A stretch of DNA of 64,000 bases. Source: Mytilus edulis. Taxonomy: Eukaryota. Below are positions 1 through 63,729 of the stretch, in pieces. Under the pieces are notes generated by a model. It did not search any database. It worked only from the letters and a program-made list of their open reading frames with translations, and was not told the origin of the DNA. Numbering within the stretch: the stretch's first letter is position 1; each line of letters opens with the position of its first letter. The stretch lies in contig NC_092344.1 of the NCBI RefSeq assembly GCF_963676685.1, positions 115,196,001 through 115,260,000 of the forward strand. The letters run 5' to 3'. Both the position numbers and the translations under genes were made by a program.

Positions 1-1083
1 TCAAATTGATTTTTTGGTGTTTTTTTCCATGGAATGTTTTTGGTATTTGGTCAAACATATAACTATGTTAACCTCTTCAATTTCTAAAACATTTTAAGTG
101 CTAAGCTCTTGATGATTCAGAAATACATGCCTCCGCTCGCAAAACTTCAAACTGCATTATCTCTAAAACGACAATAGATATCTCAAATCTGTTAAATGAT
201 AAATGATCTACAGTTGAAGGACAACATTATAGAAAAAGAATTGGGACAATTTCAAAGTTCACCAAGGTCACAATTAATCATCAAATATATGATGCAATAC
301 AAAACTTGAGAACCGGAAGTCGTAGAGACATGGGACTATCACCATTCAACTCAGGACCACTTGACCTTTCAAATATTACAAGGTCAAGGTCATAGTAAAA
401 TGTAAAGGTCAAGGTGAAATTTCATCATGACCTGACATTGACCTCAAATTGAAGGTCTTGAACTACTGATCATCTTTGCAGTTTATAGTAGGTTGATATC
501 TGTTACCTTAAAAAAGATATACACACAATACTATACTTTTAAGAATCATCCCGTCGTAACTTTTGAACAGACAGTCGGACTCTTTTGAGGTCAGTGTATA
601 AAATGTAGAGCTCGTCGAGAGGAACATTTTATACGCTGTAAGTATGCAGCAAACTCTTACCGTTTTCCTAATATGAAAGCTTGAAATTGCAGCGTAATTT
701 TTTTTTGCACTCGGTGACCTTTGACCTTGGGTGCAAATTAAAGGCCACATGAACTTAAGATTATTGGTGTAGGTCCCAAGTCTTTACGACTTCCGGTTCT
801 CAAGATACAATTTTTCAAAAATTGGGTATATTTTTTCAAGGGAAATAACTCCTTATAAGGGTTAACAACAAAATGATTGTAGTTAATTAACATTGCCATC
901 TGGTCCTGTACATGTTGCCGTTTTCAAATCGATTCTATCTTGAATACTTTTTGAGAAAATGTAAAAGAAAGAAATTGCTTCAAGGGGACATAACTCTCAT
1001 AGGGAATGATGAAATCCTTAGCAACCTCATATGGTAACACATCATGATGAGATCTAACTATTGTCCAAATAAGGTCATGATAT
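1..1083. repeat. Helentron/HINE-like interspersed repeat, left part (resumes at 11552 after the Gypsy insertion)
   Basis: Recurrent TGACCTT/AAGGTCA and GG(A/G)xATAACTC motifs. 1016-1083 recurs at 11552-11619 and continues into paired hairpins at 11846-11917. Family assignment is inference. Confidence 0.4.
1016..1083 (+). repeat. 68-bp target duplication, left copy
   Basis: CCTTAGCAACCTCATATGG...AAGGTCATGATAT is identical to 11552-11619. Confidence 0.9.
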
Positions 1084-1774
1084 TGTAACGGTTTCGTTAT
1101 TTGAATTTATAGGTAGATTGATTTACAACCATCACAGTTCTTTTATGAACGGTGGGAGGGCTAAACAATTTTCAAGCATTTACTGGACTTATAGTCGTGA
1201 AATCACATCATTATAATGAACTGTGTCGGGAATGTCAGGATCATATTATTACTCCAACTGAACGTTTATTTTATGTGTAATGTATAAAGAGTTCTTACCT
1301 TTACGATTTATTGTTTGCATTCCGTGGTAGCATCTTAAATTATTCATGTCTATAATTTGGAGTCCCGTTATTTTTATGTACATTGATTTTCATGTACGAC
1401 GCTCTGGTATCAGAATTTGTCAACAATAATGGCGACGACAATATCTGATACCAGAGCGTCGTACATGAAAATCAATGTACATAAAAATAACGGGACTCCA
1501 AATTATAGACATGAATAATTTAAGATGCTACCACGGAATGCAAACAATAAATCGTAAAGGTAAGAACTCTTTATACATTACACATAAAATAAACGTTCAG
1601 TTGGAGTAATAATATGATCCTGACATTCCCGACACAGTTCATTATAATGATGTGATTTCACGACTATAAGTCCAGTAAATGCTTGAAAATTGTTTAGCCC
1701 TCCCACCGTTCATAAAAGAACTGTGATGGTTGTAAATCAATCTACCTATAAATTTAAATAACGAAACCGTTACA
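1084..1774. repeat. Fold-back palindrome of the LTR 5' part (arms ~330 bp, ~30-bp spacer)
   Basis: 1084-1414 is the reverse complement of ~1443-1774, with one visible mismatch at 1103. Confidence 0.92.
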
Positions 1775-1935
1775 ATACCCCCCTACCAAATTTAGTTTGT
1801 CCCCAAACTGAACGCATTTAACAACAATAGTCAATAAGTGAGCATATAAACAAAACAAAAGCTAAATGAACACATTATTGGTATTTAACTGAATTCGATG
1901 CACATATTGTTCGGTTCTAATGTCTTTAAACACGA

Positions 1936-3192
1936 TTAGTAAAATCTACAAGCAATAATGTCACAACTGCTTTCTTTATCCTCGAATGTTTTCTTTACAA
2001 TTGCTGCCATCTCCTCTGTTTGGGTTCCTGATAAGGTGGTTACTGGAGTAACCTGTATATTTTCATCACGAGTTTCGGGCGTAGTAGAAGCCTGAACTCC
2101 AGTTGTCTTGTACCTTCGGACCGGGATGTCTGGCACCCAGTGACTGGTCAGTGAATATACTGTTCCATCCGGGAGCTCACATCTCTCAGTTTTGATTAAA
2201 CCAGAATAACCATCTGGCAAAATAGTAGTAGAAAGGTTGTTTCTCCTAGCCTGTTCCCTGAGTCTCTTCAATAGTACAGCCTCATTAGAAGAGTGATAAG
2301 ACGAAGGAGGACAAAGAAGTACCTGCCTGGGATCCTCATTGTCCTTCTCCTCGGGCAGTCCAAAGTGTCTATAATCATATATTTTTCCAAATTTTAGATG
2401 AGTGGGAGTAATTCTGGAGGGGAGGTAGTTGGGCGTGGGCGTCATCCCATCTATTTCGACAACCCTTATATCTTCTTGGATGACCTCCATGCCGTCCTCG
2501 GTGACTTCGACTAATTGCTCCCTCACCTCTGTCACTGTGTCTTCTCCTGGTCGCTCACTAATTACAGTTTCATCTGGCTCTTGGATGTCCTCACTGACGG
2601 GTACTGATTGGTCATCCATGACTACTGTTCCCTTCTCAATTTCGAAACCATCTGATTCTTTAATGTTATCAGTTGCTATCTTGGCTCGTTCTTGATCCTG
2701 CATGACTGATTTAACAAGCTTCGGAACACTCAAAAGGGGAGTGTTATCTACTGAATTCTCTACCTCTGCGACTGCTATAACTGGTAACGCAAACAGTAGG
2801 TCTTCTGTAGGGGTTGTATGTTTGGTGGCCATGAGTTCCTCGAATTCCACTGTCATGGGTGATGGTTCCCTCAGTGGTGGGCATTCTGCTGAGGGCAATT
2901 TTGTAGCCTCAGAGTTAGTTGAACTCTGCTTCTTCTTCTTCTTCTTTTCCACTTTCTTTACCACTGATGGTATTTTCTTTGTGGGTGTCTTTTGGTTTTC
3001 CTTACTTTCATCCTTGAACTTGTACCAGTGTTTGGATTTCTCATGATGCCTCATCCTGTAGGTGGCATTGGATGATACGTCGTAGGGACACCATCTACAT
3101 TTCACTCTATTATCTGTGTGCGCATAGCGCAAATGCCTCTTGAGACTCTCCAGAGTGGGATAGTTCCTCATACACTCATTACAGGTGAACAT
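1936..3192 (-). CDS. Gypsy ORF3 (env position): 418-aa protein with two N-terminal C2H2 zinc fingers, basic NLS-like run and acidic region
   Basis: CNECMRNYPTLESLKRHLRYAH and CRWCPY...MRHHEKSKH; KKVEKKKKKKQ. Same sense as the element, ending ~150 bp before the PPT/LTR at 1787-1774. The acceptor TTTTATTTTCCCAG lies directly before the ATG. Confidence 0.85.
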   Translation of the reverse strand: MFTCNECMRNYPTLESLKRHLRYAHTDNRVKCRWCPYDVSSNATYRMRHHEKSKHWYKFKDESKENQKTPTKKIPSVVKKVEKKKKKKQSSTNSEATKLPSAECPPLREPSPMTVEFEELMATKHTTPTEDLLFALPVIAVAEVENSVDNTPLLSVPKLVKSVMQDQERAKIATDNIKESDGFEIEKGTVVMDDQSVPVSEDIQEPDETVISERPGEDTVTEVREQLVEVTEDGMEVIQEDIRVVEIDGMTPTPNYLPSRITPTHLKFGKIYDYRHFGLPEEKDNEDPRQVLLCPPSSYHSSNEAVLLKRLREQARRNNLSTTILPDGYSGLIKTERCELPDGTVYSLTSHWVPDIPVRRYKTTGVQASTTPETRDENIQVTPVTTLSGTQTEEMAAIVKKTFEDKESSCDIIACRFY

Positions 3193-3433
3193 CTGGGAAA
3201 ATAAAATTTAACCATGAGTCCGAGAAAACCCAAACAGGAGATACCAGAGCCACAGATTTGATTTTCTTTGACAGCTTTATATTTTAAGTCCTACCCCAAC
3301 CCTGTACAACCATTTGAAAATCCTTAAAACCCTAAATTTTGACTATAAAACCCTTATTTATTTGTGGAAACATTTTCTTTAATTTTTAACCCTTTTACTA
3401 AATTATACAAAATCGTTTAGATATTTCGGCTAT

Positions 3434-4233
3434 TTTTGAGTGTTCCGGAGCTTGTTAAATCAGTCATGCAGGATCAAGAACGAGCCAAGATAGCAACTGA
3501 TAACATTAAAGAATCAGATGGTTTCGAAATTGAGAAGGGAACAGTAGTCATGGATGACCAATCAGTACCCGTCAGTGAGGACACCCAAGAGCCAGATGAA
3601 ACTGTAATTAGTGAGCGACCAGGAGAAGACACAGTGACAGAGGTGAGGGAGCAATTAGTCGAAGTCACCGAGGACGGCATGGAGGTCATCCAAGAAGATG
3701 TAAGGGTTGTCGAAATAGATGGGATGACGCCCACGCCCAACTACCTCCCCTCCAGAATTACTCCCACTCATCTAAAATTTGGAAAAATATATGATTATAG
3801 ACACTTTGGACTGCCCGAGGAGAAGGACAATGAGGATCCCAGGCAGGTACTTCTTTGTCCTCCTTCGTCTTATCACTCTTCTAATGAGGCTGTACTATTG
3901 AAGAGACTCAGGGAACAGGCTAGGAGAAACAACCTTTCTACTACTATTTTGCCAGATGGTTATTCTGGTTTAATCAAAACTGAGAGATGTGAGCTCCCGG
4001 ATGGAACAGTATATTCACTGACCAGTCACTGGGTGCCAGACATCCCGGTCCGAAGGTACAAGACAACTGGAGTTCAGGCTTCTACTACGCCCGAAACTCG
4101 TGATGAAAATATACAGGTTACTCCAGTAACCACCTTATCAGGAACCCAAACAGAGGAGATGGCAGCAATTGTAAAGAAAACATTCGAGGATAAAGAAAGC
4201 AGTTGTGACATTATTGCTTGTAGATTTTACTAA
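3434..4233 (+). pseudogene. 5'-truncated inverted second copy of Gypsy ORF3 (C-terminal ~265 aa)
   Basis: Reverse complement of 1936-2733 with 3 visible amino-acid changes (K>E, I>T, I>V); lacks the zinc fingers. Confidence 0.85.
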
Positions 4234-4381
4234 TCGTGTTTAAAGACATTAGAACCGAACAATATGTGCATCGAATTCAGTTTTATACCAATAATGTGTT
4301 CATTTAGCTTTTGTTTTGTTTATATGCTCACTTATTGACTATTGTTGTTAAATGCGTTCAGTTTGGGGACAAACTAAATTT

Positions 4382-4394
4382 GGTAGGGGGGTAT
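4382..4394 (+). other. Polypurine tract (PPT)
   Basis: GGTAGGGGGGTAT immediately before the TGTAAC LTR start; inverted copies at 1775-1787 and 7194-7206. Confidence 0.85.
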
Positions 4395-5821
4395 TGTAAC
4401 GGTTTCGTTATTTAAATTTATAGGTAGATTGATTTACAACCATCACAGTTCTTTTATGAACGGTGGGAGGGCTAAACAATTTTCAAGCATTTACTGGACT
4501 TATAGTCGTGAAATCACATCATTATAATGAACTGTGTCGGGAATGTCAGGATCATATTATTACTCCAACTGAACGTTTATTTTATGTGTAATGTATAAAG
4601 AGTTCTTACCTTTACGATTTATTGTTTGCATTCCGTGGTAGCATCTTAAATTATTCATGTCTATAATTTGGAGTCCCGTTATTTTTATGTACATTGATTT
4701 TCATGTACGACGCTCTGGTATCAGATATTGTCGTCGCCATTATTGTTGACAAATTACGTCACACATTGAACCTTGGGAAAGTGCAGGTGGCATGACGTCA
4801 CACAAGTGAACGTCAATTCTACTATGTTCTTATACAAAATGTGTGTCACGGTGTGTCTTAGTGTGTCGTCCTTGTATATAAATTTGCGACATCTAAGCAC
4901 TCGGGTTCAGTCTTGTTTCGTCTGGGCGCCATTCCTACGACTTTCAAATAACTAAAGCTGCTTACATATTTTTGTCTTAAGGTTAGCATATAGGATTATA
5001 AATATATAAAAAAAAGGGTTAAAATAATATTTCTGGATATTATCTACAATTTGTCGGTGACAATAACTTTCATTAATTTCATTTAAGAGAATTATACTGA
5101 TTCAATACATATCAACACTGCGACACGGTGCCGACACACATAAGTGTGTCGTGTTTCTAACAACGTATATAAAGCAGATTTTTATACATTCTTTATATAA
5201 ATAAAGATACGAAATTCACTTTTGAAAGTTATAGTATAATACAAGGCGTATTAAAACTAATGGAAGAATAGAATATTGGAATTATTACTCTGAATAGGTT
5301 TTTCGTAGTATTTAGGCCTTATAGGACGACACACTTTTAAAGCAGAGAAATAGTAATAACTCGACACACATACTTATATCATACAAGAGAATATTGTTTT
5401 AGACTAAGTAAGGGAATAAATTGTATATTATCATATTATTTGTTTATTGTCATAGTATTGTTCATAAGAGATATATACTGATACCAGAGCCATTCATTTG
5501 CTACCATAGATGTAAATAAGATACCATAAATCTATTTAGGACGTATTAATAACTGTTTCTTGGTAATTAATCGACTTATTGTTAATTGTTATAAAAGATC
5601 ATAATATATTTCACTTCTAGTTAATAAATCGTTAACTTATTAAATATCTCCTTATATATGCCATACGTGATTCACTTTATACTATCAACTGTACCTAGAG
5701 GCGTTTACGTTCAGGATCATTCCGCTAAGGTTTAATAATAGGAGTACGTTATTGCCCATCCTCCCTTATAAAACGCTCTAGATCCGTTGATAGGTACACA
5801 AAGTTTCTTGGATATAAAATT
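4395..5821 (+). repeat. Nearly complete LTR (~1.46 kb full length; last ~30 bp missing here)
   Basis: Starts TGTAAC. CRE-like TGACGTCA at 4793, TATATAAA at ~4875, Inr-like TCAGT at ~4907. The 3' end ...GCTGATTACA is seen only in the inverted copy ending at 7296. Confidence 0.85.
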
Positions 5822-5938
5822 TGCCAATCTAAAAATCTCACCAAAGAAATGCTCGTTTTTCCAGGAAAAAGTTCATTTCCTTGGTCACGTGGTATCTGAA
5901 GAAGGAGTTGCTACCGACCCTGATAAGATAGCAGCTAT
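5822..5938 (+). mobile_element. 117-bp pol (RT thumb) fragment templated into the insertion
   Basis: Reverse complement of ~10082-10197. Confidence 0.9.
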
Positions 5939-5943
5939 GTAAT

Positions 5944-7265
5944 ACATCTAAGCACTCGGGTTCAGTCTTGTTTCGTCTGGGCGCCATTCCTACGACTTTC
6001 AAATAACTAAAGCTGCTTACATATTTTTGTCTTAAGGTTAGCATATAGGATTATAAATATATAAAAAAAAGGGTTAAAATAATATTTCTGGATATTATCT
6101 ACAATTTGTCGGTGACAATAACTTTCATTAATATCATACAAGAGAATATTGTTTTAGACTAAGTAAGGGAATAAATTGTATATTATCATATTATTTGTTT
6201 ATTGTCATAGTATTGTTCATAAGAGATATATACTGATACCAGAGCCATTCATTTGCTACCATAGATGTAAATAAGATACCATAAATCTATTTAGGACGTA
6301 TTAATAACTGTTTCTTGGTAATTAATCGACTTATTGTTAATTGTTATAAAAGATCATAATATATTTCACTTCTAGTTAATAAATCGTTAACTTATTAAAT
6401 ATCTCCTTATATATGCCATACGTGATTCACTTTATACTAATAAACAAATAATATGATAATATACAATTTATTCCCTTACTTAGTCTAAAACAATATTCTC
6501 TTGTATGATATTAATGAAAGTTATTGTCACCGACAAATTGTAGATAATATCCAGAAATATTATTTTAACCCTTTTTTTTATATATTTATAATCCTATATG
6601 CTAACCTTAAGACAAAAATATGTAAGCAGCTTTAGTTATTTGAAAGTCGTAGGAATGGCGCCCAGACGAAACAAGACTGAACCCGAGTGCTTAGATGTCG
6701 CAAATTTATATACAAGGACGACACACTAAGACACACCGTGACACACATTTTGTATAAGAACATAGTAGAATTGACGTTCACTTGTGTGACGTCATGCCAC
6801 CTGCACTTTCCCAAGGTTCAATGTGTGACGTAATTTGTCAACAATAATGGCGACGACAATATCTGATACCAGAGCGTCGTACATGAAAATCAATGTACAT
6901 AAAAATAACGGGACTCCAAATTATAGACATGAATAATTTAAGATGCTACCACGGAATGCAAACAATAAATCGTAAAGGTAAGAACTCTTTATACATTACA
7001 CATAAAATAAACGTTCAGTTGGAGTAATAATATGATCCTGACATTCCCGACACAGTTCATTATAATGATGTGATTTCACGACTATAAGTCCAGTAAATGC
7101 TTGAAAATTGTTTAGCCCTCCCACCGTTCATAAAAGAACTGTGATGGTTGTAAATCAATCTACCTATAAATTTAAATAACGAAACCGTTACAATACCCCC
7201 CTACCAAATTTAGTTTGTCCCCAAACTGAACGCATTTAACAACAATAGTCAATAAGTGAGCATAT
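5944..7265. repeat. LTR fragments with a shared ~300-bp internal deletion: + copy 5944-6438 folding back into - copy 6439-7193, plus PPT region
   Basis: The deletion junction CATTAAT|ATCATAC at 6131 recurs inverted at ~6510. Confidence 0.85.
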
Positions 7266-7295
7266 TGAAGCGGGTCCGACCTGCTGCCTGTGAGA

Positions 7296-8048
7296 TGTAA
7301 TCAGCGACAATCTCCTCAACGACAACAATTTTATATCCAAGAAACTTTGTGTACCTATCAACGGATCTAGAGCGTTTTATAAGGGAGGATGGGCAATAAC
7401 GTACTCCTATTATTAAACCTTAGCGGAATGATCCTGAACGTAAACGCCTCTAGGTACAGTTGATAGTATAAAGTGAATCACGTATGGCATATATAAGGAG
7501 ATATTTAATAAGTTAACGATTTATTAACTAGAAGTGAAATATATTATGATCTTTTATAACAATTAACAATAAGTCGATTAATTACCAAGAAACAGTTATT
7601 AATACGTCCTAAATAGATTTATGGTATCTTATTTACATCTATGGTAGCAAATGAATGGCTCTGGTATCAGTATATATCTCTTATGAACAATACTATGACA
7701 ATAAACAAATAATATGATAATATACAATTTATTCCCTTACTTAGTCTAAAACAATATTCTCTTGTATGATATAAGTATGTGTGTCGAGTTATTACTATTT
7801 CTCTGCTTTAAAAGTGTGTCGTCCTATAAGGCCTAAATACTACGAAAAACCTATTCAGAGTAATAATTCCAATATTCTATTCTTCCATTAGTTTTAATAC
7901 GCCTTGTATTATACTATAACTTTCAAAAGTGAATTTCGTATCTTTATTTATATAAAGAATGTATAAAAATCTGCTTTATATACGTTGTTAGAAACACGAC
8001 ACACTTATGTGTGTCGGCACCGTGTCGCAGTGTTGATATGTATTGAAT
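7296..8048 (-). repeat. 3' half of LTR, undeleted allele, including the ...TTACA terminus
   Basis: Reverse complement of 5100-5821, plus the terminal ~30 bp. Confidence 0.85.
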
Positions 8049-8143
8049 ACCGTGTCGGTGATGCTGTCTGGATATTCAACCCATTGCGAAGAAAAGGGTT
8101 AAGTCCAAAGCTGCAACCACACTGGATAGGCCCTTACATCATT

Positions 8144-11100
8144 AGACTTAACCCTTTTCTTCGCAATGGGTTGAATATCCAGACAGCATCACCGACACGG
8201 TATTGTCGCGAATGGACCCTAGTGTCGTACTGACGTTTTTGTCTATCACTTGCGTGTTTCATCTTCTCTCTTGCGACATCGTGTATGTCCCAAAGCCCCT
8301 TTCGTAAATCTTTTAGGTAATCATTCTCGGATTTCTCGTCCGTCTCTATACTATCTGGGTAAGATCCAAAAATCAGGTCAATGGGAAGTTCAATTTCCCT
8401 TCCGAACATCAACATGGAGGGCGAAAACCCTGTACTCTCATGGTCGGATGACCTGTAAGCCATGAGAGCTAACTGTAGATGTTCATCCCAGTCTTTTTGA
8501 TGTTTAGTTACGTATTTACTCAAAATATCTTCCAAAGTCCTGTTTAGCCGCTCTACCATTCCATCACTTTGTGGATGCATTGCTGTTGTTCGTGTCTTGT
8601 CTATTTTTAATCTGGAACATAGATCCTGAAACAGTTTGGACTCAAACTGAGTTCCTCTATCTGTGTGCAACTGTTTTGGAACTCCAAAACGTGACACAAA
8701 TTGACTGACAAAAATTTCAGCAACTTCTTCAGCGGTCAGACCAATCATAGGGTAGGCTTCGGCCCATCGCGTGAAATAGTCCGTGAGAACTAAGATGTAC
8801 CGGTAACCTGAATGAGTTTTGGGTAAAGGGCCAAGAATGTCAATGGCCACCCGTTCTAATGGTGCCCCCACCAGGTACTGCTTCATAAGTCCTTGATAAT
8901 GTTTCTGGGGTTTCTTACGAGCTTCGCACGTTTTACATTGTCGACACCATTGTATAACGTAATCCTTGTAACCTGCCCAATAAAATCGTCTCGAAACTCT
9001 GGCTAAGGTGCGATGTTGGCCAAAATGTCCAGCGGGTGGATCGTCATGCAGCATTTTCATGACTTCCTCATGCCAACAGTCAGGTAAGATTAACTGGGTT
9101 ATTTCACCCTTGTCTTTGGATTGCCAACACCTATACAGGACACCATTTTCCAATTTTATCTTGTTCCATTGGGCCCAATAAACTTTCAAAGTTATGCTTT
9201 GAAAAGAAATATCTTCCCAATTGGGCCTTTCTGTACCTTTCACTTTCATCTCCCGTAATTGCTTCAAAATCGTGTCGTTTTGTTGAGCAGTTGCGATTTC
9301 CACGAGGCTTCTACTCTGTACCCATTCAAAGCTGTCCGTGTTATCTTCTATGTCGACTTCTTCGGTATCGAATATTTCAGGTTCCTTTGTGGCTCCTTTC
9401 GCGACTCTGACATGTTCAATGTCATCTTTCTCAGTATTTTCTCTGTTCTTACTTTCTTGACGGGTGCAGTATGTACACGGAGAACATGGACGCCGCGAGA
9501 GTCCATCTGCATTATTGTGTTGCCTGCCAGGTCTGTGTTGAATGGTGAAATTATAGGAGGCAAGGATCTCCAACCATCTCGCGGTTTGACCTTCAGGGTT
9601 TTTGAAATTCATTATCCAATTGAGTGCGCCGTGATCTGTTCTTACCAGGAACGGGACTCCATACAAATAGTGATGGAAATGTTTGATGGATAAAACTACT
9701 GCTAACAACTCCCGTCGAGTGACACAGTAGTTCCTTTCGGGTTTATTCATACTCTTGCTGAAATATGCTATAACCTGCTCTTTTTCGTATGTTACTTGTG
9801 ATAGCACTGCCCCAATTCCGTACCCACTAGCATCGGTATCTAAGATGAAAGGTTTGCTAATATCCGGATATCCAAGTATCGGAGCTGAGATTAGGCATTC
9901 CTTCAGTGTATCGAGCGCTTTTTGGCATTCTTGAGTCCATTTAAATCGATCCCCTTTTTCCGTAAGTTTATGAAGTGGCCTAGCTATGTCAGAGAATCCA
10001 CGAATGTACCTCCTATAGTAAGAGCAGGTACCTACGAAACTTCGCACCTCGTGAACTGTTTTAGGGGTAGGCCACTCTTTTATAGCTGCTATCTTATCAG
10101 GGTCGGTAGCAACTCCTTCTTCAGATACCACGTGACCAAGGAAATGAACTTTTTCCTGGAAAAACGAGCATTTCTTTGGTGAGATTTTTAGATTGGCATT
10201 TTTGATTTTTGATATAACTTGTTCTAAACGGGACAGGTGCTCTTCAAATGAATCTGCAAAAATTATGACATCATCCAAATACAGCAGGCAAATTTGCCAA
10301 TTCAGCCCTGACAGAACGCACTCCATGAGTCTTTCGAAACATGCGCCCGCGTTGCATAACCCAAATGGCATTACTTTAAATTGGAAAAGGCCTTTAGTTG
10401 TGACAATACTCGTCTTTTCTTTGTCGGATTCGGCCATCTTTACCTGCCAATAACCACTTTGCAGATCAATGGTCGAATACCAACTTGCGCCTCTTAGAGC
10501 ATCCAGACAATCTGCTATTCTTGGGAGTGGATACGAGTCCTTTTTTGTCAAATGGTTAATTTTTCTGAAGTCCGCGCAGAAGCGCCAAGAGCCGTCGGAT
10601 TTCTTAGGTACTAGTACGATTGGGGACGACCATGGACTAGTACTAGGCTCGATGATTCCTCCCTCCAGCATCCGGTCTATTTCTTGATCTGCTGCCTCCC
10701 GTTTGGCCAGAGGAAGACGTCTCGGATTCTGTTTAACAGGCCTGGCATCACCCGTGTCAATTGTGTGTTCAATGAGGTCACAACAACCCAAATCATTCTT
10801 TGATTTTGCAAAAGCATCGCTGTGTCGGATCAGTAGATGTTCCAACTGCACTCTCTGCTCTTCGGACAACTCACGACTACTTGCCATGAAAAGACCCTCA
10901 AGGTGGTGAGGTAAGATTGAATAAGTCTTTTCTGGGTCCTCGGTATTAGTAGTAATTATATTAGTTCTTACTACTTCACTCCTTTCAGGAGGTTCCGACT
11001 GAAAGGAACCATATGGTAGTGTCTCACATGTTGCAAGATTGGTGTGTCGGTAGATGACACATTCTGTGTCGATCATGTTAACAATACGCATCGGTATTGT

Positions 11101-11477
11101 ACCATTGCTAGGGTCAACTACCGATCGTGCGACATGAAAATTCGTGTCGGTACTTGGCTCTTCTGGTTCAACAATAGCGTCAGAAATATGACTCGAATCT
11201 CCTACTATTGTTGCTCTTATAATGGATTCCGAAAAAGGTGGTAATGTAACATTTTCATCAATGGTAACCTTAAAAATAGTCGCCATTTGCGACTCTTTCT
11301 GACATGCAATCTCAGTGCCTCCAAATGTTATAGTACCCTTGCCAAGGTCAATCTTACAGTTGTGTCGGTTTAGTAAATCATATCCCAAAATAGCCGGAGT
11401 ATCAATATCGGCTATCAATAAGATGTGTTGAAAACATTTCCCGTTTATTGTAATGGAAAATTCTGCTTTTCCATTAC
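8144..11477 (-). CDS. pol: Gypsy pol: partial aspartic protease, reverse transcriptase, RNase H, integrase; truncated at both ends by junctions
   Basis: ILGYDLL, SPWSSPIVLV, DLQSGYWQ, MPFGLCNA, YLDD, TDASGYGIGAVL, HHCC zinc motif, D-D-E integrase core; no stops over 3.3 kb. The GPY/F motif (PKLQPHWIGPYII) is on the inverted 8046-8143 piece. Confidence 0.95.
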
Positions 11478-11551
11478 TATGAACGGTGGGAGGGCTAAAC
11501 AATTTTCAAGCATTTACTGGACTTATAGTCGTGAAATCACATCATTAGCAA

Positions 11552-11619
11552 CCTTAGCAACCTCATATGGTAACACATCATGATGAGATCTAACTATTGT
11601 CCAAATAAGGTCATGATAT
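11552..11619 (+). repeat. 68-bp target duplication, right copy
   Basis: Identical to 1016-1083; preceded by an extra TTAGCAACC micro-duplication. Confidence 0.9.
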
Positions 11620-11845
11620 CTTCAAAAACAACGAGGGGGGGGCCATATCGAAAAAAAACAATAAAAGGGAGATAACTTCTAAAGGGGATGATGAAATCCT
11701 ACACAGCCTCATCTGGTAATACTTTATGATGAGGTCTACCGATGGTCCATATTTGGTCTTGATAACTCCAATAGAAACAAGGGGAGGCCATGTTAAACAA
11801 ATGCTGGATGAAAAAAAAAAAAAAAAAAAACAGGAGAAAAACAAT

Positions 11846-11917
11846 AAGGTCTTTCCTCGCGGAGAGGAAAGACCTTAAAAACAGTAAGGTCTTACCCCAC
11901 GTAGGGGAAAGACCTTA
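11846..11917. repeat. Two tandem GC-cored hairpins (AAGGTCTT...AAGACCTT), HINE/Helentron-like terminus
   Basis: AAGGTCTTTCCTCGCGGAGAGGAAAGACCTT and TAAGGTCTTACCCCACGTAGGGGAAAGACCTTA. Confidence 0.55.
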
Positions 11918-12237
11918 AAAAAAGAAATGAAGTACACAATAAAATGCAACCAATGAAGTAAAATACGGAATCAACACAATAATTCCGGAATGAAAAAGCA
12001 GATATCAACGAACGATTCCGGAAATGATCGGAAATTACTTTACATTCGGAAATAAACGAATGTTTCCGAATACTACCGGAAATATATATACATACGGAAA
12101 TATACGAATGAATACGAAAACTAATGAAATGATATAACATTTTGTATCTTTACCAGAAAATAAAAACACAACGAAAAATTCCACATAAATATAAATTTAT
12201 TCAATGAAATATACATATATTTACACAAAATACAATA

Positions 12238-12642
12238 TTACTGTGTGAAACGTCCTTCAAGTTTTAATTTCCTTTCCATTAAATTATAAACACTCACTTT
12301 CATTTTTTCTGATCGAAGCGTGTCCATGAACAAAACATGAAGAATGAAAAAGTTTAAAACGACACTATTTTCCAAGGTCAATGTTCTCACATTCTCTCTG
12401 TATTTTCCTAGTATGTGACTGTATTTAAACTCACAGAACGCCTGATCAAAATGTTTTTCGAGTTTATCTAGTTCACTATCCATCAAACATTCGTGTCTAT
12501 GTTGTGATCCATGTTCCACTTTGCATCCCTGACAAAACTTCTTTGATAATTGTTGCACCATTTCATCCAATAATTCAGCAAAAGAAAACAGTAATATAGT
12601 TGAAAGCAGTCTTTTTTCCATACCAACTTTAATTGCCACCAT
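12238..12642 (-). CDS. Polinton accessory protein with CxxC-H-HxC putative zinc-binding motif
   Basis: CQGCKVEHGSQHRHEC; AATAAA on - strand at ~12196-12201. Confidence 0.6.
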   Translation of the reverse strand: MVAIKVGMEKRLLSTILLFSFAELLDEMVQQLSKKFCQGCKVEHGSQHRHECLMDSELDKLEKHFDQAFCEFKYSHILGKYRENVRTLTLENSVVLNFFILHVLFMDTLRSEKMKVSVYNLMERKLKLEGRFTQ

Positions 12643-12649
12643 TGTACTA

Positions 12650-12910
12650 TCAGTGTTCGTCTATAAATGAATGAAGAAATAAGATGCTGTCCTTTAGATA
12701 ACACAGTTTCGTCCAATTTTCTTTAGTGATCAGAATCTTTTTCCCTTTAACAACAAGCTGTATTCGAGTATGTTTTCCTCTTTTCTTCACCACCACTTTT
12801 GTTGTTTCATCAATTAAACACTCGATCTGTTTCTTGAATAAATCAGTATGCAAGTGATCAAAGTCACAACCGTACACCTCCTTGGATAAATCAACCTGTG
12901 CCTGTGCCAT
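12650..12910 (-). CDS. Small Polinton protein, possibly PC4-like ssDNA-binding fold
   Basis: ATG start; KKILITKENWTKL resembles the PC4 GISLTxEQWxxL motif (by eye). Confidence 0.5.
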   Translation of the reverse strand: MAQAQVDLSKEVYGCDFDHLHTDLFKKQIECLIDETTKVVVKKRGKHTRIQLVVKGKKILITKENWTKLCYLKDSILFLHSFIDEH

Positions 12911-13071
12911 TGATATAACTGTGTGCTTTTATAGTTGTGGTAGCGGCTTAAATTGTTCATGATGATTCATTAAGAGATAAAAGAAACGTATGGTGAACGT
13001 TTCGGTCACGTGGTTAAAAGGAGGGTTACTCGAATACTTTTTTTCCTCCCTTCTTTTTATGTGAATCTCAT

Positions 13072-13263
13072 TTATATTTTATTTATAGAAGGGTTTGGTA
13101 AAATGTAACCAGTACAACCACTTAATAAACTAACCCATAGTTCTATACTCCCATTTTGTGTTGATAAATTAACAACTGCCGCAATAACAATTATGAAAAC
13201 TATTATCATCTGACAAAAATACACGATCTCTGCTTTTGGTACATTCTGTCCGAAAAACACCAC
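13072..13263 (-). CDS. Small two-helix membrane protein typical of Polintons/adintoviruses
   Basis: YFCQMIIVFIIVIAAVVNLS...LWVSLLSGCTGYILPNP; GTG start, true start unclear. Confidence 0.6.
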   Translation of the reverse strand: MVFFGQNVPKAEIVYFCQMIIVFIIVIAAVVNLSTQNGSIELWVSLLSGCTGYILPNPSINKI

Positions 13264-13657
13264 TTTGTTTGAAGGTTTTCTGTGCTCATCCTCTCTGACA
13301 TCTTAACTCGAAATATATTTTTTTTAAATACACAAAATATATATATATGTCTATATTTTATAGTAGAATTTCATTAAGAAGATGTAATTTCCAATGTTCA
13401 ATATGAAAACTTTTGTTATCATATTGTTGTTTTAGTTGAAATAATGTATGTTTATCAATTGAAAGTAATAAAATATACAATCTAGTTTTCTTTTCTTCGA
13501 AAATAAACAAGTTGTGAACCTTTTGTAGATATTTCATATTCGTTGGAGAAGAAAAACGAACTGATCATGTACAACAATAATAGACTCTTTTTGAATGATT
13601 TGTTGGTCCTTAAAAGGACCGTTGTACACATGTAAATGATATACATGGATTTTTTTC

Positions 13658-13966
13658 TTATTGGTAGTTGACAGGATCCATAAACTTGTAGTCTGCTAAC
13701 ACTGCATCAAAGTAACATCCACAAAAATATAGATCTTCAATAAACTCTGGGTGGTGTTCAAAGTTGTATAGAATACAAACAATGTAACCGTTTTTCAGAA
13801 GCCATGTTTCTACTGGACACCGAGATAGTTCTTCATGATGAAGTTTATCAACCCTGTTCCTTATCAAATTTGCAGTCTTTTTGGGACCTCTTCGTGATCG
13901 TCTGATCTTCCCTGTTAGTTCTCTTTCTCTTAAAAGTGTATACATATTAAAATTTTGGAGATTCAT
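13658..13966 (-). CDS. Polinton terminal ORF, 102 aa, unknown function
   Basis: ATG-started ORF; TATA-like sequence just upstream; basic N-half. Confidence 0.45.
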   Translation of the reverse strand: MNLQNFNMYTLLRERELTGKIRRSRRGPKKTANLIRNRVDKLHHEELSRCPVETWLLKNGYIVCILYNFEHHPEFIEDLYFCGCYFDAVLADYKFMDPVNYQ

Positions 13967-14182
13967 ACTGTTTGTTCTTATAAAATTACTAATGATGTAT
14001 GCTATATAGTAAACGTTTTTCTTAGTTTATAAACTTTTTACATTTAGATTATACGTTTACAAGATTAAACTTTAGGATGTTAACGTGCATGTCTCAACGT
14101 GTATGCCACGTTTACAAGATAATACGTAGGAGGGTAGGGGGGATTAAAAAACATGTCCGTTAATTTTTTTCCCCACCGGATT

Positions 14183-14453
14183 TTAACCAGGATGTTAAGT
14201 ACAAGTTAAGAAGATTAAGAAATTAATCCACTTCAGTTAAGAGGATTATAACCAGGATGTTAAGTAGCAGTTAAGAGGATTAGGAGATTAATCCACTTCA
14301 GTTAAGAGGATTATAACCCGGATGTTAAGTAGCAGTTAAGAGGATTAAGAGATTAACCCACTTCAGTTAAGAGGATTATAACCCGGATGTTAAGTAGCAG
14401 TTAAGAGGATTAAGAGATTATAGACCGGATTTAACGTCATAGTTAAGAGGATT
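14183..14453. repeat. Subterminal tandem repeat, 65-bp unit x ~4
   Basis: ACC(A/C)GGATGTTAAGTA at 14186, 14251, 14316, 14381. Confidence 0.9.
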
Positions 14454-14574
14454 AGCTGTGACGTGACTTCCGGTGGCGGGTTGGTGGCGGACTGACCCCA
14501 TTTCATACTACTCAGATACATGTATGTCATTATGGAAATACAACTTCAAAATATTGATGGATTCAGTAGAGGAT

Positions 14575-41755: not shown

Positions 41756-42537
41756 ATTATAGTATCATGAGTATATCTGGAAGTTTTTTATGACAGAGAA
41801 AGATTAACTCAATGTTATCTGTATAAGTTGATATCATTAGAAATCGTCATCTGATTTCATAGTCACAGGAGGCCTCGGTGGTTTTTATGAAATGTTCACT
41901 GATATTTATTGCCAATTTTTTTTTTATATCTTGCCATAAATTTAAATTCTTACCAAAAACCGATTTTCAGGAAATTCGAGTGTGAATTCTTGCCAGACTT
42001 TCATTTCATTGTCATACTACACTTATAGAAGAAGAATGCACGAGACACCACTCCCCAGATATGAATGCATATATTTATAGGCTAGACAAAATAATATTAA
42101 AGCAGTATACTGACAACCGTAATCAACTACTTTTCCATTCTGAAAATATTGTTCTGGTTGAACAGTTATGCTTCATGTGCTTTTAAAACAATGTATATGT
42201 CAGTTTCCTGCCATTTAATATTTTCTTATTTTTATGTAATGTTTTTTTTACTGTATTATTATCAATGTTTATCAATAAATCTGAATTAGATTGAATTAAA
42301 TGATCTGTTTCAAGTGTAAACATTGTCAATTCAGTCGTTCAAACATAGGAACCTTTTTTGTGATTATTGAAATTTTTCAATCAGAATTGAGGATTATTTT
42401 TGTTTGGTACTGGAAATTCTGTATTGTCTTACCTAAACTGAATTAGGTAAGAAGTGTTTTTCGAACTCCCACGGCTTGCTACTGGAAGATGCCGGATTCT
42501 CTGTTTGCTATATCACGGCTCTTCCTAAGGTAGTTGA

Positions 42538-43566
42538 GTCGACTGTAGATGTTTTGGTGTGGTACTTGGACCATCCTCTTCATGCTGCTGTGTCGACTGT
42601 AGATGTTTTGGTGTCGTACTTGGACCATCCTCTTCATGCTGCTGTGTCGACTGTAGATGTTTTGGTGTCGTACTTGGACCATCCTCTTCATGCTGCTGTG
42701 TCGACTGTAGATGTTTTGGTGTCGTACTTGGACCATCCTCTTCATGCTGCTGTGTCGACTGTAGATGTTTTGGTGTCGTACTTGGACCATCCTCTTCATG
42801 CTGCTGTGTCGACTGTAGATGTTTTGGTGTCGTACTTGGACCATCCTCTTCATGCTGCTGTGTCGACTGTAGATGTTTTGGTGTCGTACTTGGACCATCC
42901 TCTTCATGCTGCTGTGTCGACTGTAGATGTTTTGGTGTCGTACTTGGACCATCCTCTTCATGCTGCTGTGTCGACTGTAGATGTTTTGGTGTCGTACTTG
43001 GACCATCCTCTTCATGCTGCTGTGTCGACTGTAGATGTTTTGGTGTCGTACTTGGACCATCCTCTTCATGCTGCTGTGTCGACTGTAGATGTTTTGGTGT
43101 GGTACTTGGACCATCCTCTTCATGCTGCTGTGTCGACTGTAGATGTTTTGGTGTGGTACTTGGACCATCCTCTTCATGCTGCTGTGTCGACTGTAGATGT
43201 TTTGGTGTGGTACTTGGACCATCCTCTTCATGCTGCTGTGTCGACTGTAGATGTTTTGGTGTCGTACTTGGACCATCCTCTTCATGCTGCTGTGTCGACT
43301 GTAGATGTTTTGGTGTCGTACTTGGACCATCCTCTTCATGCTGCTGTGTCGACTGTAGATGTTTTGGTGTCGTACTTGGACCATCCTCTTCATGCTGCTG
43401 TGTCGACTGTAGATGTTTTGGTGTCGTACTTGGACCATCCTCTTCATGCTGCAGTGTCGACTGTAGATGTTTTAGTGTCGTACTTGGACCATACTCTACA
43501 TGCTGCTGTGTCGACTGTAGATGTTTTGGTGTCGTACTTGGACCATCCTCTTCATGCTGCTGTGTC
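42538..43566. repeat. Minisatellite, 54-bp unit x 19, near-perfect
   Basis: GTCGACTGTAGATGTTTTGGTGTCGTACTTGGACCATCCTCTTCATGCTGCTGT; no spacers. Confidence 0.97.
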
Positions 43567-62816: not shown

Positions 62817-63729
62817 ACTGTTAGTGTTGCTCTCCACCAATTGCAACTCATTCAAAATTTTGACCAAATTGCAATTTGTTTTATTATACCAAATTGTTCA
62901 ACTGGTCAGAATATTGAACAAATTGTTCAGTCAAAATGTGAAAGTGCAAGGTGATAAAATAAAACATACTTACAATCCTATAAGACTTTAACTCCACTTT
63001 AATGATGTTGTGACAAAATTAGTTTATCAGTTTGTATAGTTATATTATAGTCATTTCCATGCTGAAGAGGAACTGTTTATTTTGAATTGCTATAAAATTG
63101 TCCAAACTAAGCTTTCATATAGTTTTTCTTTCTAAAAGTATTCTATATTTATAACAATCAGATATCATTTTAAATAAAACATCATATATTCAGTAAAATA
63201 TGTGTGAAATAACAATATGCTATTGATAAGTTTTCAGGGGAGATAACCTAAAATATTATTCTTTTGAATAAAGACTTTTTGAAAGAAAAGTTATTATCTC
63301 CCCCATGGAAACTTCCTACAAACATATATTGCAGTTTAACACATATTTTACTGAATATGAAATGTTTTAATTCACATAATGTCTGATTCTTATAAATATA
63401 GAATACTTTTAGAAAGAAAAACTTTATGAAAGCTTAGTTTGGACAATTTAATAGCAATTCAAAATAAACAGTTCCCCTTCAGCATGGAAATGAATATAAT
63501 ATAACTATACAAACTGATAAACTAATTTTGTCACAACATCATTAAAGTGGAGTAAAAGTCTTATAGGATTTTAAGTATGTTTTATTTTATCACCTTGCAC
63601 TTGGCTGTGGTTTTCTACAGCAGTTGGTTCAAATTTCTGACCAGTTGAACAATTTGATTTTATAAAACAAATTGCAATTTGGTCAAAATTTTGAATGAAT
63701 TGCAATTGGTGGAGAGCAACACTAACAGT
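62817..63729. mobile_element. Fold-back element with ~230-bp inverted arms in CSPP1-like intron
   Basis: ACTGTTAGTGTTGCTCTCCACCAATTGC... vs ...GCAATTGGTGGAGAGCAACACTAACAGT. Confidence 0.8.

Follow-up and report, generated by a model that had tools for sequence, protein, structure and literature searches.

Within the window, a 64,000-nucleotide stretch of the Mytilus edulis genome (contig NC_092344.1, positions 115,196,001 to 115,260,000), positions 1084-11547 hold a 10.5-kb insertion built from 12 pieces of a single Gypsy family in alternating orientation, as resolved by self-BLAST and by mapping onto a natural full-length family copy (G000:C4:72842959-72853031; E denotes a position in that copy, whose LTR is 1484 bp long). 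The source element classifies by sequence as a Ty3/Gypsy LTR retrotransposon, on the basis of its TG...CA LTRs, PBS and PPT and of the domain order of pol, which runs RT, RNase H, integrase (Pfam RVT_1 299-459, RT_RNaseH 548-651, Integrase_H2C2 808-865 and rve 882-978). The intact copy on contig C4 has TG...CA LTRs of 1484 bp that are 99.8% alike, a G-rich PPT, a 4-bp target duplication and a PBS-like 18-mer beginning TGG, presumably of the tRNA-Leu type. A further reading frame, ORF3, matched no envelope family in Pfam and so does not qualify as an errantivirus-type envelope. Its N-terminus carries a C2H2 zinc-finger-like motif (Pfam E 0.001, weak and below the cut-off, as is a match to Spt46), its body is acidic and of low complexity, and its neighbours in the Atlas are C2H2 or unnamed proteins.

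Order and joins of the pieces

The left copy of a 68-bp host duplication (1016-1083, +), a sequence present once in a paralogue, ends in the 4-mer ATAT (1080-1083), which adjoins an LTR start. Piece A (1084-1414, +; LTR1-331) begins with the exact terminal TG and has a private substitution at 1103. At a small hairpin in the LTR, whose stem spans about LTR333-337/356-360, piece A folds back into piece B (1414-3431, -), which in the element sense runs from E6930, at the end of IN, through ORF3 (1936-3192, -; 418 aa from the ATG) and the PPT to LTR362. Two extra bases mark the B/C inversion junction (3432-3433). Piece C (3434-5821, +) runs from E7629, in the middle of ORF3, through the PPT to LTR1423, and differs from piece B by 5 bases (4 events) over 1322 bp. 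A blunt join leads into piece D (5822-5938, +), which is 117 bp of RT (E4651-4767), and five extra bases (5939-5943) at the D/E join pair with the beginning of piece E as an inverted repeat whose arms are 5 bp long (5937-5947). Pieces E (5944-6132, +; LTR496-680) and F (6131-6439, +; LTR978-1286) meet where about 298 bp of the LTR have been lost between imperfect repeats of 17 nt, and the same deletion junction is repeated where piece G (6439-6511, -; LTR1050-978) meets piece H (6510-7265, -), which covers LTR680-1 and the PPT and continues to E8517.

At the H/I junction (7262-7267, -) the exact LTR 3' terminus CA is joined to an internal ATAT (E8517), which precedes the 3' LTR by 73 bp. Piece I (7266-8048, -; LTR704-1484) is free of the deletion and its last bases are the terminal CA; it overlaps by 3 nt with piece J (8046-8146, +), 101 bp of IN (E6645-6745) that fold back into piece K. 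Piece K (8145-11473, -) is a part of pol truncated on both sides (E3376-6704), in which the RT, RNase H and integrase domains are found. After four extra bases at the K/L junction (11474-11477), piece L (11478-11547, +; LTR61-130) ends in a stretch similar to host positions 1010-1020 (TGAAATC, then TTA). A templated insertion (11548-11551, +) follows, at which the host 9-mer of 1018-1026 is doubled (11545-11553 and 11554-11562), and the right copy of the host duplication (11552-11619, +) then runs on into empty-site sequence.

In total there are 13 joins, of which 12 are distinct, the LTR deletion junction being found at two places, with overlaps of 0-3 nt or 2-5 extra bases; the extra bases at 5939-5943 and 11548-11551 are copied from adjoining sequence. 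The start of the LTR with its PPT is present three times and LTR61-130 five times, whereas gag and the PBS (E1485-3375) are absent, as is E6746-6929, so the scrambled product cannot be a functional element. At the level of sequence, the insertion is confirmed as assembled. An earlier note, made from the letters alone, had listed its segments, about 12 template-switch junctions and microhomologies TAT (1081), AAT (8046) and TTA (11545); we recovered every segment to within a few bases, and all three microhomologies are present. What it had called flank within 7266-8048 is instead the 3' half of an LTR, ending exactly at the terminal CA.

The 68-bp flanking duplication that the same note described is also there: positions 1016-1083 and 11552-11619 are 100% identical, and an upstream paralogue (L006:9050-9117) has one copy. 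Judged by this single-copy paralogous empty site, the repeat is a true host duplication. The two window copies have 3 differences from the paralogue in common, and a join of two paralogous repeats was rejected on this comparison. The host sequence at the right end belongs to a high-copy repeat.

All of the pieces represent one haplotype, which is not that of the copies on C4 and C14 used for comparison (a C119 copy identical to the C4 copy across 13 kb, flanks included, was counted once). Over the 6479 bases present in more than one copy, the repeated pieces show only 5 private events, none of which occurs as an allele in the fetched copies covering those positions. No donor locus was found among the assembly copies compared, as the window haplotype occurs in none of them, and the deleted LTR was found as a pre-existing variant neither among 44 genome matches nor in the listed contigs of four sequencing runs over 5650-6490.

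LTR termini, target sites and a second locus

Integrase of this family makes a 4-bp target duplication in 4 of the 4 loci with both ends visible, which narrows the 4-5 bp of the earlier note. The targets are ATAG, GTAT, ATAT and ATAC where both sides are visible, and ATAT, ATAT, TTAT, AGAT and ATGA where one side is. Three of these nine are exactly ATAT (background 0.013) and eight are within one mismatch of it (background 0.11); the family's 4-bp duplications are centred on ATAT, its preferred target. The window locus is not a normal concerted integration, in that of its two host junctions only the left one is exact and the duplication is 68 bp rather than 4 bp.

Exactly two joins sit on LTR termini, and both are at ATAT. 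At the left boundary, host ATAT is followed by the exact LTR start TG at 1084 (ATAT/TG, 1080-1085); at 7265/7266, the LTR end meets the interior of the element itself (CA/ATAT, E8517). Under two simple nulls, the chance that two or more of the 22 breakpoints on the element side fall on a terminus is 8e-5 to 1e-3, which points to the ends of linear cDNA, rather than a chromosomal template, as the source of these joins. The element itself carries AT beside both termini (TAT/TG on the PPT side, CA/AT on the PBS side), so that cDNA ends could also have been captured without integrase. The likelihood ratio for integrase is only about 3-10, comparing the square of the family ATAT rate of 3/9 with 0.09 x 0.12-0.37.

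A second scrambled locus of the family lies on contig C4, making 2 of 10 family loci. It has one exact LTR end, where the target is ATGA, and a flanking duplication was looked for there and none was found. The second locus is the older of the two; its repeated pieces are only 92-97% alike, so that scrambled structure is both old and real in this family.

Assembly of the insertion

On a slender balance of probability, we hypothesize that the locus is one young insertion of 12 rearranged pieces of one haplotype, begun by integrase joining one cDNA end and completed by host repair synthesis; under this explanation the insertion would be a single, recent event. First, integrase would have joined a U3 end at the host ATAT, as the exact left boundary suggests. 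Second, an integrase product, either a 1557 bp autointegration mini-circle or a cDNA inserted into another cDNA, may have been among the templates. Third, several cDNAs or reverse-transcription intermediates may have been copied and joined by RT template switching and by Pol theta-like or MM-BIR synthesis. Finally, a free element 3' end would have used host DNA lying about 66 bp upstream of the first join as its priming site and template, and resolution of this copy with the right arm would yield the 68-bp duplication.

The left side of the locus shows what one-ended integration leaves, an exact terminus at a plausible target (ATAT/TG) with a truncated other end. At that other end, piece L stops at LTR130 with homology to host 1010-1020, retains its own bases at a mismatch in this stretch and then slips by 9 nt, and the 68-bp duplication follows, consistent with priming on the host. 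The join at E8517 has the form of autointegration, an exact LTR end on the element's interior at a target-like site, and its reciprocal junction was not found in the window. Many microhomology joins, templated insertions and copy gain are present, as expected of MM-BIR or Pol theta, and a role for Pol theta is suggested by these scars. The earlier note attributed the whole to integrase-independent template switching. Template switching and microhomology stand, given the short overlaps, fold-backs, copied inserts and copy gain; independence of integrase is unsupported, with two joins exactly at LTR termini and at the preferred ATAT. As for the FoSTeS that it named, the side retained at imperfect homologies points both ways, right-to-left at A/B and the deletion and left-to-right at C/D, J/K and the host join; one continuous fork of that type would be a poor fit, though these homologies are short. 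Its argument from the 68-bp length also fails, because the one-ended integrase events described for ASLV and HIV give long host duplications at one end (PMC5041404).

Several observations weigh against the preferred explanation. One intasome acting on two different targets would be unexpected, and at least two cDNA molecules are needed. The mini-circle reading, under which pieces I and H cover 1534 of 1557 bp, conflicts with the seemingly pre-formed deletion in G/H. Unprocessed cDNA ends could join by 2-3 nt of microhomology without integrase, and the ATGA end of the second locus, with no flanking duplication found, also counts against it.

Alternatively, linear cDNA or reverse-transcription intermediates could have been copied or ligated into an existing chromosome break by Pol theta or MM-BIR without integrase, a refinement of the earlier note that we regard as rather unlikely. 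The termini would then be exact merely as natural cDNA ends, joined through the TAT overlap at 1081-1083 and the AT overlap at 7264-7265, and the second locus does lack ATAT at its exact end. Yeast breaks are described as taking up Ty1 cDNA, including insertions of 2-4 pieces (PMC11372161), and MM-BIR initiated by Pol theta as giving multi-switch insertions with fold-backs (PMC13065848). However, under this alternative both termini must have met a complete ATAT by chance (about 0.01-0.03), and the combination of an exact end on one side with a long duplication generated on the other is the outcome expected of one-ended integration.

Strand-displacement chimeras are typically inversions with short overlap. 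The inversions seen here would fit such an amplification chimera, fold-back reads or mis-assembly, but we consider an artefact unlikely: the repeated pieces differ by substitutions (5 events), the haplotype differs from the other copies compared and the pieces are thus not borrowed from those, and neither joins at exact termini nor a templated slip nor a return to a point 68 bp upstream is expected of chimeras; the second locus, with its repeated pieces 92-97% alike, argues in the same direction. Improbable as well is an ordinary insertion at the host ATAT with a sister copy nested at E8517 and later break-induced template switching in the chromosome, which would make both exact termini normal integrase events and recalls the nested and tandem LTR structures described as common in plants (PMC11899658, PMC1950507), but leaves the partner ends of both insertions missing (no CA/ATAT into host, no E8520/TG), requires an empty template, because the right duplicate continues into empty-site sequence, and, with one haplotype and 5 private events in 6479 bases, would require insertions and scrambling to be nearly simultaneous.

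Related systems and recurrence in the family

One-ended aberrant integration is described for ASLV end mutants and for HIV-1 with sub-optimal integrase inhibitors or a weak integrase (PMC5041404). As at the mussel locus, those cases are reported to have one normal end and a truncated end joined to more element DNA in either orientation, with several templates open to copying, short homology at the priming site and a host duplication far above the normal 4-6 bp. They come from cultured cells with drugs or mutants and mostly retain an intact provirus with one bad end, whereas the mussel locus is a natural LTR retrotransposon in a genome assembly, in 12 pieces with no intact backbone and with a second exact terminus on the element interior; the single-provirus table of PMC5041404 may nevertheless hold multi-piece cases. 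An LTR end joined to the interior is the signature given for autointegration (SISYPHUS, PMC7197481; HMS-Beagle 1-LTR fragmented circles, 10.1101/2022.09.25.509424), and the same-strand join at 7265/7266 resembles the deletion/inversion circles. These are described as extrachromosomal and non-productive, while the mussel junction lies inside a chromosomal insertion.

The many switches, microhomology or blunt joins, fold-backs and local amplification are also like chromoanasynthesis by MM-BIR with Pol theta (PMC13065848), in which the templates described are chromosomal loci or a plasmid at induced breaks; here they are one retroelement haplotype, with two joins at termini. Capture of Ty1 cDNA at double-strand breaks (PMC11372161) likewise involves LTR-biased cDNA pieces, sometimes 2-4 fragments, but the account of it concerns fewer fragments and an induced break and, in what it describes, mentions no long host duplication. 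Complex and tandem LTR retrotransposons of plants (PMC1950507, PMC11899658) resemble the locus in that one insertion holds several LTRs, for which RT template switching is given as part of the explanation; the reported structures differ in being arranged as head-to-tail tandems rather than shuffled in both orientations, and many of them have normal 5-bp duplications.

If the window insertion is real, one-ended integration with completion by host polymerases would be natural for an LTR retrotransposon, up to chromoanasynthesis-like complexity, and would place an autointegration-type junction inside a chromosome. A bolder and doubtful reading is that the family repeatedly enters the genome by a second route, in which stalled or broken RT intermediates and autointegration circles, supposedly a dead end, are combined at an integration left half finished and become heritable, the intermediates stalling or breaking at fixed places (LTR ends, the LTR362 hairpin, E6742-6745). 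On this reading, LTR retrotransposition would regularly end in scrambled insertions, an overlooked outcome that preserves cDNA intermediates formed in vivo as fossils and that pipelines requiring two LTRs and a short duplication discard. The 2 scrambled loci in 10 do suggest an insertion class that standard annotation discards, and the question could be tested in any long-read genome by the simple signature of such insertions, which combines a long duplication, a shuffle within one family and one exact end at the target motif.

With LTR termini left out, the two loci have 2 of 15 breakpoints in common at a tolerance of 3 nt (p 0.025-0.04) and 3 of 15 at one of 10 nt (p 0.03-0.07), a sharing that is only marginal, as the tolerance was picked after the data had been seen and the second-locus positions are BLAST ends. 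A central PPT as the cause of hot spots at E6742-6745 and E6930-6938 was rejected: purine runs lie nearby, but starts and ends are mismatched in kind between the loci.

Contigs of 20 runs in 8 studies matched the locus, and 8 runs, one per study, were compared. Among the contigs listed, none from 4 runs over 7200-12600 spans H/I, I/J, J/K, K/L or the right host junction, and none from 4 runs over 5650-6490 bridges the C/D, D/E or deletion junctions, which is no evidence of absence, since contigs drop rare variants. The contigs listed over 5650-6490 carry the normal element continuation at C/D, D/E and the deletion junctions. One contig of run X4 starts at 7266, as piece I likewise does.

Structure of the insertion

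The insertion (window 1084-11547; the window is G000:C1:115196001-115260000 of a 1.37-Gb assembly) consists of 12 pieces, A to L, as determined by self-BLAST and by mapping onto a full-length family copy at C4:72842959-72853031, and the scrambled Gypsy insertion described in an earlier note was borne out by both. The C4 copy, whose 1484-bp LTRs are 99.8% identical and which is flanked by the 4-bp duplication ATAG, served as the ruler for element (E) and LTR coordinates. It was counted as one locus together with C119:28571-41571, which is 100% identical to C4:72841500-72854500 over 13 kb, flanks included, and is probably a redundant contig. Another family copy, at C14:57791861-57800340 (L007, L008), has an intact ATAT duplication and a double deletion, running from 5' LTR 1-560 to LTR1211-1275 and then to E2168.

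The 13 junctions show overlaps of 0-3 nt or added bases. Overlaps measure 3 nt at the left host join and I/J, 2 nt at E/F, G/H, H/I and J/K, 1 nt at A/B and F/G, and 0 at C/D; bases were added at B/C (2), D/E (5) and K/L (4), and the right host join has a 3-nt overlap followed by 4 added bases. Four junctions (A/B, B/C, F/G, J/K) are fold-back inversions. Piece K codes for RT, RNase H and integrase, arranged as in Gypsy elements; gag, the PBS and E6746-6929 are missing from the 12 pieces. LTR sequence makes up 4214 bases in all, equivalent to 2.8 LTRs, and 70 element positions occur five times; thus, more than one cDNA, or re-copying, was needed. Differences from the C4 copy are identical in all overlapping pieces, as expected of a single donor haplotype. 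Private changes amount to 5 events in 6479 multi-copy bases, none of them seen in the other fetched family copies, and 4 of the 5 fall within the B/C overlap, upstream of E8517 (clustering p = 0.02), a pattern that would fit either two templates that differ slightly or error-prone copying.

Element ends and the host site

At the left join, host ATAT is followed by the first base of the LTR. At 7265/7266, the last LTR base meets the element's own ATAT at E8517, and the 'flank' previously assigned to 7266-8048 is actually the 3' half of the LTR. The chance of at least two terminus matches among 22 element-side breakpoints is 8e-5 to 1e-3, and therefore linear cDNA ends appear to have been used. 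Family target 4-mers are ATAG, GTAT, ATAT and ATAC where both sides were seen, and ATAT, ATAT, TTAT, AGAT and ATGA where one side was seen, the ATGA coming from a second scrambled locus. Exact ATAT occurs in 3/9 targets versus 0.013 in host DNA, and at most one mismatch to ATAT in 8/9 versus 0.11. Because AT adjoins both termini in the element itself, the integrase call is not firm; with this overlap allowed for, the sequence would favour integrase by a factor of only about 3 to 10.

The host flank is the second unit of a tandem duplication (roughly 2 kb, 92-96% alike; L006:7358-10000, just upstream, and window 1-1083 and 11620-11818), which contains a very high-copy repeat. In its first unit (L006:8032-9314, 91-96% alike) the site is empty and the 68 bp occur once. 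Both window copies (1016-1083 and 11552-11619) share three differences from that single copy, and are therefore a young duplication; the same differences rule out two joined paralogues. A separate, very young 2.6-kb repeat (11918-14512) begins 300 bp beyond the right end of the insertion; it is 99.2-99.7% identical to four fetched copies, relative to which its left end is cut, and has 65-bp internal tandem units without a long ORF.

Origin of the scrambled insertion

We lean cautiously towards an insertion begun by integrase and completed by repair, from several cDNA templates. For ASLV and HIV, PMC5041404 describes one end being inserted by integrase, after which a host polymerase extends the remaining 3' end on a viral or host template, on either strand and possibly on several templates, with host DNA copied near the site to give a long duplication or deletion. 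The closing join here matches that series of events, and the 68-bp duplication, being of a kind expected from one-ended integration, does not argue against integrase. The earlier note's reading is thus supported in part: template switching has support, whereas integrase independence lacks it.

Piece L ends at LTR130, with final bases similar to host 1010-1020 (TGAAATC, then TTA). Where the two mismatch, the bases kept are those of piece L, which suggests that the element end was likely the primer at the right host join. The host 9-mer at 1018-1026 is written twice before the 68-bp duplication carries on; slips of this kind are a scar left by Pol theta. Judged by which side was retained at imperfect homologies, priming appears to have run right to left at A/B (6/12 matches) and at the deletion between LTR680 and LTR978 (9/12), and left to right at J/K (7/12), C/D (6/12) and the host join. 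Some joins probably predate insertion; examples are the snap-back at LTR362 and the deletion, which is bounded by 17-nt repeats, and either would be a plausible RT error. Pieces I and H cover 1534/1557 bp of the circle expected from same-strand autointegration at E8517 (circle types are treated in PMC7197481 and 10.1101/2022.09.25.509424). However, the deletion adjoins H and is absent from I, which two different cDNAs would fit better than a circle, although either origin is plausible.

Capture without integrase is a less likely alternative to an integrase-begun insertion. An artefact is unlikely, being countered by the sequence signatures and by the second scrambled locus, C4:64898649-64903387 (L012, L020, L021). 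The copy there belongs to an older subfamily, is 78-96% identical to the ruler and comprises about eight pieces, two of them inverted. One LTR 3' end is exact, two insertions came later, and no flanking duplication was found. Its repeated pieces are 92-97% alike, which rules out a single-molecule chimera. Scrambling was seen in 2/10 fetched loci of the close family, and in none of three loci of greater distance, for which the sequence compared spanned just 2.2-2.5 kb. Breakpoints common to the window and the second locus are LTR1484, LTR1/4, LTR362/363, E6745/6742 and E6930/6938, with LTR363 and E6742 at most 3 nt from window breaks. With termini included, 4/17 fall within 3 nt (p < 0.001); without them only 2/15 do (p 0.025-0.04, post hoc). 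Among the contigs listed for 8/20 sequencing runs, none showed a novel junction at the stretches compared, which says little on a rare allele. Scrambling after insertion is about as unlikely as an artefact.

Our literature search, in mostly open-access main texts on complex LTR insertions, autointegration, aberrant integration, cDNA capture, mollusc Gypsy elements and alt-EJ, found neighbouring phenomena; among them was no natural LTR insertion made of many pieces in two orientations with a single exact end. Multi-piece cases may be included in the provirus table of PMC5041404. PMC11899658, by its own statement, filtered out more complex arrays, and Tf1 insertion independent of integrase has reportedly been found.

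ORF3 and other window features

ORF3 has no envelope family match and only a weak C2H2 match. One 57-nt contig (one run, depth 28) joins LTR ~588 (AAG|GT) to the ORF3 start codon, its two sides of 30 and 27 letters falling short of the 31-letter rule; the corresponding window sites are 6036 (+) and 3192 (-), and the start codon lies 3' of a pyrimidine-rich AG. The donor GT is kept in 7/7 further loci in which this motif could be located, and the acceptor AG in 3/4. A spliced RNA is the likely source of ORF3, which is zinc-finger-like rather than an envelope protein. Elsewhere in the window, 42535-43566 consists of 54-bp tandem repeats, ~98% identical to one another, in which both strands have open frames, and 62817-63729 is an imperfect palindrome of 913 bp, 87% self-complementary.
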